Source: an uncultured cyanobacterium (GTDB taxonomy: Bacteria > Cyanobacteriota > Cyanobacteriia > CAKZMO01). Taken from it: a stretch of 64,000 bases of DNA. The DNA lies in NCBI GenBank assembly GCA_963719515.1, contig CAVRCJ010000010.1, positions 160,001 to 224,000 of the forward strand, read 5' to 3'. Shown piece by piece: positions 59,829-63,881 of the stretch. A model generated the notes under the pieces. That model saw nothing but the letters and a program-made list of their open reading frames with translations, ran no database searches and was not told the origin of the DNA. The position numbers and the translations under genes were made by a program. The first letter of the stretch is position 1. The number at the start of each line of letters is the position of its first letter.

Positions 59829-60161
59829 TCAATACAGCGTGAGCATGCCCGCTTGAGGATCAGCGGCGAGGGCTTGAATGTCCAATAGATGCCGTCGCAA
59901 AATGGCTTCAATTTCGTTCGTGCTGCAGTTGCCGCGTCGTATCCACACGATCTTAGGCGGGAAGCCTTTGAGCTGCATCAAGTCGTTGTAATCGTTGTCG
60001 CGGGTAACGATTGTGAAACCCTGCTCCTGGGCGTAGCGCCATACTTCAATATCTTCGGCTTCTGCCATATCGAGGCGGTAGACATGGGCGGATTCTGGAA
60101 ATAGGTCGGCGATGCGATCGACTAATCGCGGCGAGAGGTTGTGATCAAAGAGTAGTTTCAT
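59829..60161 (-). CDS. DUF5615 PIN-like toxin
   Basis: MKLLFDHNLS, D..VW, IVTRDND and PPKIVW. Confidence 0.88.
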   Translation of the reverse strand: MKLLFDHNLSPRLVDRIADLFPESAHVYRLDMAEAEDIEVWRYAQEQGFTIVTRDNDYNDLMQLKGFPPKIVWIRRGNCSTNEIEAILRRHLLDIQALAADPQAGMLTLY

Positions 60162-60382
60162 GCCTGTATGGCTAGGGTCTGTCTCTCGCGATCAGCAGCA
60201 TACTGTAGGCAGGCTAGGATGTCTGCTTGGGTGAGATAGGGGAAATCTTCTAGGATTTCGGCGTAGGTCATACCTGAGGCGAGGTATGACAATACATCGT
60301 AAACGGTGATTCGCATGCCTCGGATGCAGGGTTTTCCGCTGCGCTTGCCGGGTTCAATGGTGATGATGTCTTTGTAGTTCAT
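60158..60382 (-). CDS. DUF433 antitoxin
   Basis: SGKPCIRGMRITV and EILEDFPYL; 4-bp overlap with the toxin gene. Confidence 0.9.
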   Translation of the reverse strand: MNYKDIITIEPGKRSGKPCIRGMRITVYDVLSYLASGMTYAEILEDFPYLTQADILACLQYAADRERQTLAIQA

Positions 60383-60709: not shown

Positions 60710-61330
60710 TTACACTTTAGCCAAATGATTCAGGATAGAAAGCACCTGGTAAAGCTCGTTTCCTGGATTGAACAAAGAAAATAATTTGGACGTTGCATAC
60801 TGAGCTGTGGGCTGGCGCTGAGCTTTCAAAAACATAAACTCCGTGCCATTAGTCATGAAGCCAAACGTCGGTCGCGTCTGGTTCGGGTTGCCCATCATAT
60901 AGGCTAGGGTTTGAGGTAGGGCACGCGTCACGGCAAAATCGCTGCGCTTTGATTCAATGACGACCAACCAAAGCAAGTCGTTGAGGACGAGGACATCAAT
61001 ACGACCCCGAATGAGGGTGCCTTCATCTTCTAGCGTAATATCGATACTGGTTTCAGTGGTGATGCGAAACGGGCGACGGTAGAAGCCCGCCAAGTCCAAT
61101 AACGGACCTAATACAACCATTTTGACGCTGTTTTCCAGAACTGGCGGATCTTCGAGTAGGTCTAGAAAGTTGCCTTTGACCCGATCAAGCGATCGCTGCT
61201 CAGACTCGCTGACGGTCTCTAGTTTGGCCTGCCACTCAAAAAAGAACTGGGTATCTGCAGCCGGCTGCAGATTGAGCGTCCGTTTGAGGGTCTTCAGGGT
61301 GACTGCTGCGGCAGGAATCGCTTGAACCAT
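60710..61330 (-). CDS. Stand-alone HsdR N-terminal-like PD-(D/E)xK protein
   Basis: E..GRIDVLV..IESK, QTLAYM and TNG..F. Confidence 0.8.
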   Translation of the reverse strand: MVQAIPAAAVTLKTLKRTLNLQPAADTQFFFEWQAKLETVSESEQRSLDRVKGNFLDLLEDPPVLENSVKMVVLGPLLDLAGFYRRPFRITTETSIDITLEDEGTLIRGRIDVLVLNDLLWLVVIESKRSDFAVTRALPQTLAYMMGNPNQTRPTFGFMTNGTEFMFLKAQRQPTAQYATSKLFSLFNPGNELYQVLSILNHLAKV

Positions 61331-61445
61331 GGTGTACCTATCTGCTTTACAGACTTAGAGTGCCTTGTACGGACTGCGATCGCCCCAACAACAGTCTCAT
61401 TCTGCCCCAATTTGCAATGTCAGCGCCCTACAACTTAAAGTCGCT

Positions 61446-61612
61446 CTGTCCGCACTAAAGGTCAACAGCCCCATAGTCAGTTATCGTAGCTGCGCAATAA
61501 AGATCCATCCCTGCACAGCCAATGTACAGCGCCGCACAGTCAATAGGCACGGCTGCGCATCAAAGATCAGCCCATCATATTTTAGTCTGCAGGCCCTGAT
61601 CTCAATGTACAG
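61446..61612. repeat. Degenerate 21-bp periodic repeat
   Basis: Units AGCTGCGCAATAAAGATCCAT / CCCTGCACAGCCAATGTACAG / CGCCGCACAGTCAATAGGCAC / GGCTGCGCATCAAAGATCAGC. Confidence 0.5.
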
Positions 61613-61692
61613 CGATCGCAATAAAACTTTCGGCTGCCCCCTTGCCACCAGCAGCACAAATGCTCTATTCTCTGGAGCTAGAGCCGTGTCCC

Positions 61693-61895
61693 ATGGTTCT
61701 AGTCTCCCAAAGATTCGGTCTGGCGGAGCCGCATGTTGCCGAACACAACATGCAGCCCCTAAGCCACCAAGACAGAAGTAGCTGTCCGGATGACCTTGGT
61801 TGATTGTACCTGAGTCATTTCGAACCTCTTAAAGCGCTTGGAATGTCCGGGTTCTTTGGGGGACTCCAAACCCATACACAAAACTGGAGTCCCTC
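61693..61895 (+). ncRNA. Putative structured cis-regulatory leader RNA
   Basis: Long-range stem 61701-61713/61853-61865, inner hairpins, and an alternative stem 61860-61868/61885-61893 covering the RBS. Confidence 0.55.
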
Positions 61896-62246
61896 ATGAC
61901 AATCCAATACCCCGCGTGGTCCCTTACCCAAGAGGCCGCACAGCTCGCAGTGAGGCAACAGCTCGCTGCGGACAAAGCCGCACGGCTAGATTTCTCCCTT
62001 CGAGGCAGATCCCGCTATCCCCACGCTGCTGGAGCCTTCGCCAGCTCCGGGTGTGAGCATTTACGGCATCTGCTCATCGGCTCTCCCGCTGGCGTACAGG
62101 AGGCGATCGCCCGTCTGCACCTGCTTGACTACGTGGAACGTCACTACTGGACCCCGCTAATTCAGATCACCAGTCGCGGCATCCACATCACCCCTGCCCA
62201 GGGCCAGGTGCTCAGCTACCTGGTGCAGCAGCGGTCTCTTCGATAA
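61896..62246 (+). CDS. Hypothetical protein (116 aa)
   Basis: RBS GGAG at 61886; core EHLRHLLIGSPAGVQEAIARLHLLDYVE..W; hairpin downstream at 62260-62301. Confidence 0.7.
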   Translation: MTIQYPAWSLTQEAAQLAVRQQLAADKAARLDFSLRGRSRYPHAAGAFASSGCEHLRHLLIGSPAGVQEAIARLHLLDYVERHYWTPLIQITSRGIHITPAQGQVLSYLVQQRSLR

Positions 62247-62331
62247 TGGGCTATGGAGCAGCAAAATCGGTAGGAGGCATTGTCTAGCCTACGATTTTGC
62301 TTCAGGGTTGTCCTGCTAAAATAGGCATTGC

Positions 62332-62612
62332 TTGGGGGCAGCCTGCCCCCAAACCCCCGCTGAAGGACGAGCGCGTCCCCCAGACTCTCTCCGCAAGGCC
62401 GTATCCCATTGCCCTTTTCAGTTTAGGTTCGGCCAAGTATCGGCTCCAGGCCTAAAGCTGTAGCTACCTCCACTTGGCGATCGCTCCACCCCTCATCTCT
62501 AGCCAAACCGCACCAAAACCCCCAACCACTCACAAGCAATCCATTATGCAGGGGGCCGCTGGGGGAGGCATTTCGTCCCCCAGCAACGGGGGCTTGGGGG
62601 CCGCGCCCCCAA
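62332..62612. repeat. Pair of inverted GC-rich hairpin repeats
   Basis: TTGGGGGCAGCCTGCCCCCAAACCCCCG (62332-62359) and its inverted counterpart CGGGGGCTTGGGGGCCGCGCCCCCAA (62587-62612). Confidence 0.65.
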
Positions 62613-62640
62613 ATACCATCTCTCACCTCTTCTCCAACAT

Positions 62641-62673
62641 AAAAAAGCGCCCCCGCGATGGGAGGCGCTTTTT
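62641..62673 (-). terminator. Intrinsic (bidirectional) terminator of psbA
   Basis: AAAAAAGCGCCCCC-GCGAT-GGGAGGCGCTTTTT. Confidence 0.85.
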
Positions 62674-62713
62674 CAATTCAAGCTAACTCAAGGATTCGCT
62701 GTGAAGGCGCTTC

Positions 62714-63777
62714 CTAGCCGTTGATGGCAGGTGCCTCAGCAGCAGCAAGGTCAAGCGGGAAGTTGTGAGCGTTGCGCTCGTGCATCACTTCCATACCCAG
62801 GTTGGCGCGGTTGATGATGTCCGCCCAGGTGTTGATGACCCGGCCCTGGCTGTCTAGAACAGACTGGTTGAAGTTGAACCCGTTCAGGTTGAACGCCATC
62901 GTGCTGATGCCCAGCGCCGTGAACCAGATGCCTACGACAGGCCATGCACCCAAGAAGAAGTGCAGTGCGCGTGAGTTGTTGAACGATGCATATTGGAAGA
63001 TCAGGCGGCCGAAGTAGCCGTGCGCTGCAACGATGTTGTAGGTCTCTTCTTCTTGCCCGAACTTGTAGCCGTAGTTCTGGCTCTCGCTCTCAGTCGTCTC
63101 TCGCACCAGTGAAGAGGTCACCAGTGAACCGTGCATCGCGCTGAACAGCGCTCCGCCGAAGACGCCTGCCACACCCAGCATGTGGAAGGGGTGCATCAGG
63201 ATGTTGTGCTCTGCCTGGAACACGAACATGAAGTTGAACGTACCCGAGATGCCTAGCGGCATGCCGTCAGAGAATGAACCCTGTCCGATGGGGTAGATCA
63301 GGAAGACTGCAGATGCCGCTGCAACAGGTGCAGAGTAAGCAACGCAAATCCAGGGGCGCATGCCCAGACGGTAGGATAGTTCCCACTCGCGGCCCATGTA
63401 GCAGAAGACGCCAATCAGGAAGTGGAATACCACCAGCTGGTAAGGTCCGCCGTTGTACAGCCACTCGTCAAGTGATGCTGCTTCCCAGATGGGGTAGAAG
63501 TGAAGACCAATGGCGTTGGATGACGGAACAATTGCACCAGAGATGATGTTGTTGCCGTACATCAGTGAACCTGCAACAGGCTCGCGGATGCCGTCGATGT
63601 CAACGGGAGGAGCCGCCACGAAGGCGATGAGGAAGCAGGTGGTAGCAGCTAAGAGAGTCGGAATCATCAGGACGCCGAACCAGCCTACGTAGAGGCGGTT
63701 GTTGGTGCTGGTGACCCACTCGCAGAACTGCTGCCATACGTTAGCGCAGTAGAGCGCTGCTGTAGGGTAGTAGTCAT
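62714..63777 (-). CDS. psbA: Photosystem II D1 protein (E130 form) with an apparent frameshift near codon 10
   Basis: Canonical MTTTLQQRS start at 63777 is out of frame with [10 protein letters not shown]161, D170, E189, H190, H332, E333, D342 and A344 all present. Confidence 0.97.
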
Positions 63778-63852
63778 AATTGCGGTTGGTGTTATTGATT
63801 GGATGTATTAGGTGGGAGGTCTGTAACCGTTTGGTTGCTTCCCACTGATTCA

Positions 63853-63881
63853 ACATTACAGGGTTTGTAAACAAAAGTAAA
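63853..63881 (-). promoter_or_regulatory. psbA promoter overlapped by an HLR1-like (RpaB) direct repeat
   Basis: Minus strand TTTACT-N17-TAATGT; TTTACTTT-TG-TTTACAAA fits the (G/T)TTACA(T/A)(T/A) direct repeat with one mismatch. Confidence 0.65.

Follow-up and report, generated by a model that had tools for sequence, protein, structure and literature searches.

The window analysed here is a stretch of 64,000 nucleotides (nt) from an uncultured cyanobacterium (positions 160,001 to 224,000 of contig CAVRCJ010000010.1, assembly GCA_963719515.1), and towards its end lies a small open reading frame (ORF) that is preceded by a long leader. The region 61642-62301 probably constitutes a self-contained gene unit, in which a sigma-70-type promoter, a structured leader of ~220 nt, the small ORF and a 3' hairpin follow one another (Table 1). 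The TTGC and TAnnnT positions of the promoter-like site are invariant across 19 close paralogues and the site is aligned in 44 leaders, with transcription predicted to start near G61677. The leader itself, which is the main subject of this report, is quite likely a previously undescribed conserved cis-acting RNA, namely a riboswitch-like element for translational control of the ORF. Its helices are designated P0 to P6, and the C-rich junction between P2 and P3 is designated J2/3.

Table 1. Features of the leader-ORF unit, in coordinates of the window.
Feature	Position	Strand	Composition
Promoter-like site	61642..61671	+	-35 TTGCCA (61642-61647), 18-nt spacer, -10 TATTCT (61666-61671); consensus scan
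P0, 5' hairpin	61677..61703	+	core GAGCCGT (61681-61687) / ATGGTTC (61693-61699)
P1 closing helix, 5' strand	61701..61720	+	AGTCT extension 61701-61705; P1a core CCCAAAGA 61706-61713; P1b TCGGTC 61715-61720
P2, 14-bp hairpin	61725..61759	+	GGAGCCGCATGTTG (61725-61738) / CAACATGCAGCCCC (61746-61759); contains GCATGTTG/CAACATGC
J2/3, C-rich junction	61760..61771	+	consensus CU.A.CC.. (82 leaders); 3' part CCAAG 61767-61771
P3 hairpin	61771..61786	+	GACAG (61771-61775) / CTGTC (61782-61786)
P4, variable-length hairpin	61792..61816	+	GACCTTGGT (61792-61800) / ACCTGAGTC (61808-61816); apical ATTGTA 61803-61808
P5	61817..61844	+	ATTTC (61817-61821) / GGAAT (61840-61844), around a variable loop of ~18 nt
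P1 3' strand and P6 5' strand	61845..61867	+	GTCCGG 61845-61850, TCTTTGGG 61853-61860, GGACT 61861-61865; P6 5' strand GGGGGACTCC 61858-61867
P6 3' strand	61886..61898	+	GGAGTCCCTC 61886-61895; holds the Shine-Dalgarno sequence GGAG 61886-61889 and reaches ATG 61896-61898
ORF, 116 aa	61896..62246	+	conserved N-terminal MT.., variable Pro/Ala-rich linker, conserved C-terminal domain of ~65 aa
3' hairpin	62260..62301	+	~14-bp stem and inner stem, without clear U-tract; after the stop codon 62244-62246

The unit is present in many copies. The leader DNA (61640-61900) matches 21 places, itself included, in its own 5.28-Mb genome at 72-87% identity, and the ORF has 55 protein-level matches there (tblastn). 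With a wider query (BLASTN), the homology between copies starts at ~61623-61642, just upstream of the promoter-like site, and ends at ~62233-62254, at the stop codon, its overall extent being ~61635 to 62246; to the best paralogue, the identity is 87% for the leader as against 78% for the unit as a whole. The copies lie in contexts as different as XisH/XisI, PIN, Mrr and methylase genes on the one hand and photosystem, CobN, photolyase and PriA genes on the other, and among the 102 ORFs beside 18 copies Pfam revealed no family in common. As no neighbour is common to the copies, each of them is a free-standing promoter-leader-ORF unit. The window copy occupies the same locus in a congeneric genome (flanking gene and unit adjacent in G402 contig C134) and is therefore not a very recent insertion, while blastn against phage and plasmid collections gave no match that would point to such an origin. 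An earlier reading of the window, made from the letters alone (hereafter the sequence-only reading), had described a module of leader, ORF and terminator. The long hairpin that it placed after the ORF is present past the stop codon, and has no clear U-tract. The 90 nt 3' of the stop fold with z < -2 in 32 of 52 copies, and these hairpins are non-homologous between copies. Relatives of the unit (88-99% alike) also occur in four metatranscriptome RNA-library runs, where they cover ~61623-62234 in contigs that cannot show strand, ends or expression level.

As a single sequence, the segment 61693-61910 (218 nt) folds at -73.7 kcal/mol, compared with -58.0 +/- 4.6 kcal/mol for dinucleotide shuffles (z = -3.45; 1 of 200 as good). 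A homologous leader of ~225 nt is present in nearly all of the paralogues; its architecture is constant and its helix sequences differ, and this architecture extends to subfamilies whose leaders are unlinked by BLASTN. A covariance model of 230 positions and 60 pairs, R1, was built from a hand-written consensus structure on 44 aligned leaders, the seed leaving out L042 and L045 (leaders unalignable) as well as L034 (a partial copy). Full-length R1 matches were then fitted to the model, giving an alignment of 82 leaders (57 from the own genome and 25 from ten other genomes) to which the counts per pair and per leader given below refer. In this alignment, 86.7% of the cells are paired, as against 69.9% when the 3' letters are shuffled (reached in 0 of 500 shuffles) and 33-48% when they are slid by 1-3 columns. 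Changes on both sides are seen at 53 of the 60 pairs, with compensatory pairs in each of the seven helices, although such pair counts are inflated by fitting the alignment to the model's own structure. Three analyses are independent of the model-fitted alignment: RNAalifold on 19 MAFFT-aligned paralogues recovers P0, P2, P3 and P6; an independent scan, run column by column on the 44 MAFFT-aligned leaders, recovers P0, P1b, P2, P3, P5 and P6; and a sequence-weighted all-pairs scan places only consensus helices in its top ranks. The collection of homologues proposed in the sequence-only reading has thus yielded helices that are kept with compensatory changes, and the leader is, as judged from this covariation, a conserved structured domain. 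Furthermore, G-U pairs are frequent (for example, in 40 of 82 leaders at one P1b pair), which marks the plus strand as the folded one. The 1- and 2-nt insertions and deletions among close paralogues argue against a coding leader; the gap-length spectrum was uninformative on coding versus non-coding character, the nucleotide alignment not being codon-aware.

The individual helices are supported as follows. P0 shows changes on both sides at 7 of 7 core pairs with 91.5% of cells paired, ranks top in the weighted all-pairs scan and is extended by GCTA/TAGT in the subfamily of the window copy. In P2, 13 of 14 pairs change on both sides and the stem sequence is wholly different in other subfamilies (for example, GCGATCGC); the hairpin GCATGTTG (61731-61738) / CAACATGC (61746-61753) of the sequence-only reading is present as part of this longer stem. 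P3 changes on both sides at 5 of 6 pairs with 89.2% of cells paired (variants GATAG/CTATC, AACAG/CTGTT and GCTG/CAGC), and P5 at 5 of 5 pairs with 92.2% of cells paired (variants AUCCC/GGGAU, GCCC/GGGC and ACCUC/GGGGU). The pairing of ATGAC (61790-61794) with GTCAT (61814-61818) is present as it had been read, and P4 changes on both sides at 7 of 9 pairs. The P4 loop holds a near-invariant AUUNUA motif (A in 82, U in 77 and U in 78 of the 82 leaders), for which, besides the minus-strand -10 box considered below, a role in a tertiary contact, in protein binding or as a target of a ribonuclease is just as conceivable.

P1 closes this domain over a long distance. The pairing of AGTCTCCCAAAGA (61701-61713) with TCTTTGGGGGACT (61853-61865), 13 bp with one U-G, is present as it had been described, and the helix reaches further inward than that description, by TCGGTC (61715-61720) / GTCCGG (61845-61850). 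Its AGTCT extension (61701-61705) is subfamily-specific. In nearly all of the 70 distinct leader rows P1 is a duplex of 13-20 bp, with ~4 divergent rows at <=9 bp (read by eye), and its sequence is highly variable (CCCCAAAAAUUUGGUC/GACCGAGUUUUUGGG, UCCCAAGAAUUUAGCC/GGCUGAAUUCCUGGG, CCCCCGAAAUUUUGGUC/GGCCAACAUUUCGGGG and CGCCCAAAAAUCUAGUU/GGCUGGGUUUUUGGG; for P1b, TTTGGTC/GGCCAAA, TTTAGCC/GGCTGAA and TTTGCCG/CGGCAG). Within its 5' strand, alignment positions C71-C73 and A75 are at least 96% conserved. Two further elements of the sequence-only reading fared less well. In the inner stem GTCTGGCGG/CCACCAAGAC three pairs do co-vary, but the stem clashes with the better-supported P1b, P2 and P3 and is not among the top helices; the doubling of TGTCCGG, which had also been noted, is not kept in the paralogues.

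The junction J2/3 combines conserved unpaired-type positions (C191 at 98% and C197 at 100%) with a long-distance complementarity, since its CCAAG (61767-61771) is complementary to CTTGG at 61837-61841. This complementarity, already seen in the single sequence, is kept through changed sequences in relatives (CCAGA/UCUGG, CCCUU/AAGGG, CCCG/CGGG, CCGC/GCGG and CCACCG/CGGUGG). As helix registers differ between subfamilies, this pairing with the P5 region and the CCC/GGG pairing of P1 were assessed by per-sequence duplex energies with a swapped-partner control. By this measure, the J2/3 segments bind their own partners at a mean of -5.21 kcal/mol, whereas swapping the partners gives -4.19 kcal/mol, and none of 5000 permutations did as well. 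The CCAAG/CTTGG pairing is a candidate for a pseudoknot or for an alternative to the inner P5 pairs.

The part of the leader nearest to the ORF brings a second helix into play. GGGACTCCA (61860-61868) pairs with TGGAGTCCC (61885-61893) and covers the GGAG (61886-61889) before the ATG at 61896, as the sequence-only reading had it, and the corresponding helix P6 changes on both sides at 7 of 8 pairs with 92.5% of cells paired (subfamily variants GGGUUUUCU/AGAAAACCC, GGGUUGUCUUUCC/GGAGACAACCC and GGGGUUUCC/GGAAACCCC). P1 with its 3' strand and P6 with its 5' strand draw on the same nucleotides in every one of the 82 leaders: the overlap measures 1-11 nt, reaches at least 3 nt in 71 leaders and at least 6 nt in 36, and is 9 nt in the window copy, and the GGG of this common segment is 95-96% conserved. 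In subfamily A, to which the window copy belongs, and in subfamily C, the bases that precede the conserved CCC complement the continuation of the common strand and change along with it (AGUCU/GGACU, GACA/UGUC and GACG/CGUC), and the strand on the side of the Shine-Dalgarno (SD) sequence changes correspondingly (AGUCU-CCC/GGG-GGACU/GGAGUCCC; GACA.CCC/GGGUUGUC/GACAACCC; GACGCCC/GGGCGUC). In the swapped-partner control, run here among 54 distinct sequence classes and made generous by the kinship of the sequences, the upstream (P1) pairing has a mean of -6.23 kcal/mol with own partners as against -4.97 kcal/mol with swapped ones, and the SD (P6) pairing a mean of -10.42 as against -7.51 kcal/mol; for both, 0 of 5000 permutations were as good. 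The two mutually exclusive helices proposed for hiding and freeing the ribosome-binding site (RBS) are thus both conserved, and each varies between subfamilies with its complementarity kept, so that the core of the sequence-only reading is supported by the comparison of homologues. Enforcing either P1 or P6 yields values of E(ON)-E(OFF) whose median, +2.2 kcal/mol, favours the buried SD (interquartile range -0.4 to 4.3); 43 of 82 leaders lie within 3 kcal/mol between the two states, and the OFF state is slightly favoured in 60 of 82. For the window copy, the minimum-energy fold shows the RBS hairpin (P6) and the centroid shows the long-range helix (P1), so that the competing folds are visible even in the calculation on a single sequence.

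These features give the layout of an expression platform that competes with the closing helix of an aptamer-like domain. P1, with its 13-20 bp, encloses a five-way junction of P2 to P5 with the conserved C-rich J2/3, and its 3' strand runs straight into the 5' strand of P6, which pairs with the SD sequence and the bases up to the AUG. Since the G-rich segment is common to both helices, P1 and P6 cannot both be complete, and this common 'anti-SD' segment would be the pivot of the switch, with the 5' strand of P1 acting as the 'anti-anti-SD' strand. Completion of P1 would free the RBS and turn translation on, whereas completion of P6 would bury the RBS and turn it off. Because the two states are near in energy and OFF is slightly favoured, a gain of a few kcal/mol in the stability of the junction and P1, brought about by some effector, would suffice to turn translation on. 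The effector would thereby act like the ligand of a translational ON riboswitch.

The RNA and the small ORF are closely associated. R1 has 62 matches in the own genome at E <= 0.001 (60 at E <= 1e-5), and the 18 of them outside the seed include the subfamily C copies. Of these 62 matches, 60 are directly followed by a family ORF or a recognisable remnant, ~8 of the followed ORFs being degenerate (internal stops, frameshifts or a lost start codon). The remaining two are a fragment and the leader of L045, which stands ~0.8 kb upstream of its ORF. At this locus (G000 C1:181082-182055), the ORF is directly preceded by no more than the end of the leader, namely the 3' strands of P5 and P1 together with P6, and the arrangement looks like an insertion inside the leader. 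Of the 25 matches in the ten other genomes, 24 stand before a family ORF and one is cut off by the end of its contig. RNA subfamilies and protein subfamilies go together. R1 matches were found in 12 of 17 genomes of the same family (2-60 copies each, many of the assemblies being fragmented) and, under stricter filters, in 9 of 151 cyanobacterial genomes sampled across the phylum (5 of 80 genera); with a sequence profile, the leader was also found in two further families. In homologues of the Nostoc type (L082, L086-L089), the RBS is preceded by no more than a short leader, in which one or two hairpins contain GCGATCGC; the large RNA is absent.

The encoded protein belongs to an uncharacterised family. 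In a 46-member alignment with the window ORF as first sequence, the family carries the motif IGS..V..I..LH..(G)Y.E..W, with G62, W85 and G95 invariant and H58, I61, S63, P64, H75 and R113 nearly so, and the window ORF has the C-terminal domain by which membership is recognised. Proteins of subfamily A start with MTIQYP.. and those of B with MTFLYPE.., with intermediates between them; subfamily C starts with MTY.. and carries LRLIAIGSLYAVNNCRD.LH.LGYA..EWS..VMRILTKR. Lengths range over 68-158 aa across the family and 91-158 aa in the own genome. A profile of the 46 members, run against a sample of 401 cyanobacterial genomes, matches 50 of them; these represent 24 of 156 genera and often contain several matches each. 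Among 32 database relatives, 22 rows are without a name and the other 10 all bear 'hypothetical protein' as source name; named relatives come from Elainellaceae and allied thin filamentous forms, with strains of Nodosilinea, Leptolyngbya, Halomicronema and Egbenema among them. For the Nostoc-type relatives, every listed row with a description is 'hypothetical protein' from at least one source, three of them also bearing an enzyme name from one source, and many rows are nameless. The protein has no match in Pfam, NCBIfam, PADLOC, PHROGs or a PDB-sequence profile search. AlphaFold2 gives a mean predicted local distance difference test (pLDDT) score of 71.5, with a small C-terminal alpha/beta domain at 82-93 and a poorly defined N-terminal half. 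With this predicted structure, Foldseek against the PDB returned nothing above noise (best E-value 0.32), and VIA-align against 48,161 chains returned only rows in the noise range (best Z 4.2), among them uS10-type ribosomal proteins, MinE, dodecin, CutA1/PII-like proteins and an E2 DNA-binding domain; in the ESM Atlas only unnamed cyanobacterial 'hypothetical protein' clusters were found. A membrane-like segment is missing from all 46 members, whose 19-residue Kyte-Doolittle means peak at 1.31 and in no case reach 1.6. A reading of the ORF as an HUH/Y1 transposase was rejected, Y108 and His58 being replaced in subfamily C and in Nostoc-type members.

In line with the sequence-only reading, which had recognised no named RNA family here, Rfam 15 at gathering thresholds returns only rRNA and tRNA over the whole window, and a permissive scan of 61300-62720 (E <= 10) gives 8 weak matches, all downstream of 62325 and none in the leader (61672-61895). 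No description of this RNA or protein family was found in the literature searched; in principle, one of the 409 novel structures of PMC12873609, the systematic study that comes closest, could overlap with it. That study is a CMfinder screen of 202 cyanobacterial genomes conducted only beside 931 KEGG-defined orthologue groups and, the present family being without KEGG or Pfam annotation, such a screen would not have examined it.

The closest parallels in design are found among translational ON riboswitches. An example is the add adenine riboswitch of Vibrio vulnificus, which shares with the leader a multi-helix domain closed by P1, a P1 3' strand that overlaps the strand otherwise pairing with the SD and start region, and folds close in energy, such that stabilisation of P1 would free the RBS. 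Unlike add, the leader is much larger (a five-way junction of ~150 nt), stands before one uncharacterised protein family in up to ~60 copies per genome and matches no riboswitch in Rfam. The lysine riboswitch likewise has a large five-helix junction closed by P1 with the expression platform directly after it; however, it gives no match in the Rfam scan at E <= 10, and the gene context here is unrelated to lysine metabolism. The glutamine riboswitches (glnA RNA and the Downstream-peptide motif) resemble the leader as cyanobacterial cis-regulatory RNAs before very small ORFs, but they are pseudoknots of ~60 nt, neither of which was found in the leader (cmscan), and their downstream proteins are unrelated. 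Autoregulatory ribosomal-protein leaders, such as the rpsF leader bound by S6:S18 (PMC3895269), are similar in that a structured 5' leader is tied to one protein family with possible feedback of the product on translation; they differ in that the protein here has no known RNA-binding family, any binding would be putative and the copy number is far higher. The sequence-only reading had also been reminded of the c4/icd system of bacteriophage P1 and of type I toxin leaders (hok, tisB and aapA1). Likeness does exist in the long structured 5' untranslated region, the burial of the RBS by a distant upstream segment, the small ORF, the 3' hairpin and a possible antisense promoter in the P4 loop, yet membership is not supported: type I toxins are short (below ~60 aa), hydrophobic and membrane-active, whereas the ORFs here have 68-158 aa and are not short hydrophobic ones, and no phage or plasmid DNA matches the unit. 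The leader is best regarded as an undescribed RNA class of a known kind, that is, a structured cis-regulatory leader with an SD-sequestering platform.

Several observations weigh against the leader being a riboswitch-like control element, or narrow what can be said of it. Transcription from the predicted start, the switching, its direction and its trigger are what we infer from sequence, and the energies come from nearest-neighbour models of isolated RNA. Besides the inflated pair counts mentioned above, the sequences are paralogues and close kin, by which the shuffle and permutation controls overstate significance. For the metatranscriptome contigs, one of which (501 nt) spans 61746-62233, DNA carry-over is possible. 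The platform is not uniform, since in genus g3 (loci L093-L113) local closure of the hairpin adjoining P1 is possible without involvement of the SD (GGGUUUUUCUAGAAAACCC), and four subfamily C leaders of the own genome (L126, L129, L130 and L132) have a P1 far stronger than P6; in the same genus g3, the SD lies 8-10 nt further downstream and alternatively pairs with GUUUUUCU, which would make a three-way variant of the platform. The Nostoc-type homologues that lack the large leader make the RNA an accessory element of some lineages, not one essential to the protein family. Lastly, riboswitch classes usually control several ligand-linked gene families, and an RNA that occurs with one protein family only, in up to ~60 copies per genome, fits a protein- or family-specific circuit as well.

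A tentative proposal, possible and on the doubtful side, is that a new class of riboswitch has its aptamer in this leader. Such a riboswitch would respond to an ion, a second messenger or another small molecule and would gate up to ~60 paralogous genes copy by copy in thin filamentous cyanobacteria. Nearly as arguable, and likewise rather doubtful, is autogenous feedback across the family, in which the encoded protein, or its paralogues as a pool, would attach to the junction or to a loop of the leader, shift the balance of P1 and P6 and so set the dosage of the family. The restriction of the RNA to positions before this family (60 of 62 and 24 of 25 matches) and the concordance of RNA and protein subfamilies speak for such feedback, although a cis element would stand with its gene whichever model applied, and the Nostoc-type homologues do without the leader. 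The AUUNUA loop of P4 and the conserved J2/3 could be sites for a protein, and the small alpha/beta fold of the C-terminal domain has uS10-type chains among its weak best matches (Z 4.2); against this, no recognisable RNA-binding family or fold was found (Pfam, NCBIfam and PDB sequence searches being empty and fold matches below noise), and a five-way junction of ~150 nt is large for a domain of 65 aa. Between a small-molecule or ion effector and the encoded protein, the former is somewhat more likely.

An unlikely explanation is that the leader does not switch at all, its fold setting mRNA stability, a fixed low level of translation or a passive temperature response, with the P1/P6 overlap as a by-product. 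The subfamily B leaders would suit this, as their overlap is just 3-5 nt (GGG) and the helices could largely coexist, and so would the slight preference for OFF in 60 of 82 leaders and the fact that 5' hairpins such as P0 commonly stabilise mRNAs. However, in subfamilies A and C the overlap amounts to 7-11 nt, and a 5' complement that co-changes with the common strand is hard to explain without selected competition, while a junction of ~150 nt with conserved unpaired bases exceeds the needs of stability. Less probable still is cis-antisense control, whereby a minus-strand promoter in the P4 loop would drive an antisense RNA over the 5' half of the leader that pairs with the P1 5' strand, so that P6 closes and translation is turned off. 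The P4 loop does read TAnnnT (TACAAT, TAAAAT or TATAAT) on the minus strand in 70 of 82 leaders, its most conserved positions A242 (82/82) and U246 (78/82) are the most conserved positions of a -10 box, and a consensus scan gives a minus-strand promoter-like site (61832->61803) in the window copy; burial of the SD by long-range pairing is, moreover, typical of type I toxin mRNAs. Yet AU-rich loops readily give TAnnnT, no conserved minus-strand -35 is apparent by eye and no canonical terminator follows, the many G-U pairs mark the plus strand as the structured one, and the protein of 68-158 aa without a membrane-like segment is unlike type I toxins. Very improbable, finally, is an RNA of a mobile element (a guide or bridge RNA, or a repeat resembling a miniature inverted-repeat transposable element) that spreads with the small ORF. 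Such an element would account for the dispersal of ~60 copies, for their sharp homology borders and for the unrelated genes beside them, several copies lying in defence or restriction contexts. Against it speak an ORF without transposase, recombinase or nuclease signature (Pfam, NCBIfam, PADLOC and PHROGs), a unit that begins at its own promoter and ends at its stop codon, the position of the window copy at the same locus in the congeneric genome G402 and the absence of matches in phage and plasmid collections, no search having been aimed at terminal repeats or target-site duplications. An IS110 bridge RNA or an IscB/TnpB omega RNA would call for an adjacent recombinase or nuclease gene, whereas the sole linked gene is the small ORF and the neighbours of 18 copies have no family in common.

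The surroundings of the window copy deserve a separate description. Upstream of the unit, the stretch 61440-61630 contains repeated words (TGTACAGCG three times, along with GCGCAATAAAGATC, GCGCATCAAAGATC and GCGATCGCAATAAAAC) and is absent from other copies of the unit. Beyond it, on the minus strand (60710-61330) and diverging from the leader promoter, lies a gene for a 206-aa protein with a domain resembling the HsdR N terminus of type I restriction (PF04313, E = 3.9e-7), and further away (59829-60382, minus strand) two adjacent genes for a DUF433 protein (74 aa) and a DUF5615/PIN-like protein (110 aa) form a typical toxin-antitoxin-type pair. On the other side, the unit is adjoined by a psbA-type gene (62714-63874, minus strand), of which the genome holds at least 6 further copies at 91-96% identity (contigs C14, C8, C10, C16 and C1). 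Between the ORF and psbA, G+C-rich palindromic elements are present at 62327-62398 and 62477-62627 (GGGGGCAGCCTGCCCCC; GGGGGCCGCGCCCCC), which recur at ~10 other loci of the genome with 76-91% identity, like a small repeat of the repetitive extragenic palindromic (REP) type.

If the reading of the leader as a riboswitch-like control element is right, a large and well-supported class of structured RNA joins the short list of cyanobacterial cis-regulatory RNAs. Its genomic habit would be unusual, since a genome would contain dozens of copies and every copy would go with a paralogue of one small-protein family that is widespread in cyanobacteria and absent from Pfam and NCBIfam. Should the leader moreover prove to be a riboswitch class, one signal would switch on a whole uncharacterised protein family at the level of translation. 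The RNA and the protein family would both be opened to direct tests, as the RNA offers a handle on the timing of the production of these proteins and its three-strand design (the P1 5' strand, the common G-rich strand and the SD strand) lends itself to simple compensatory mutants in reporter assays.

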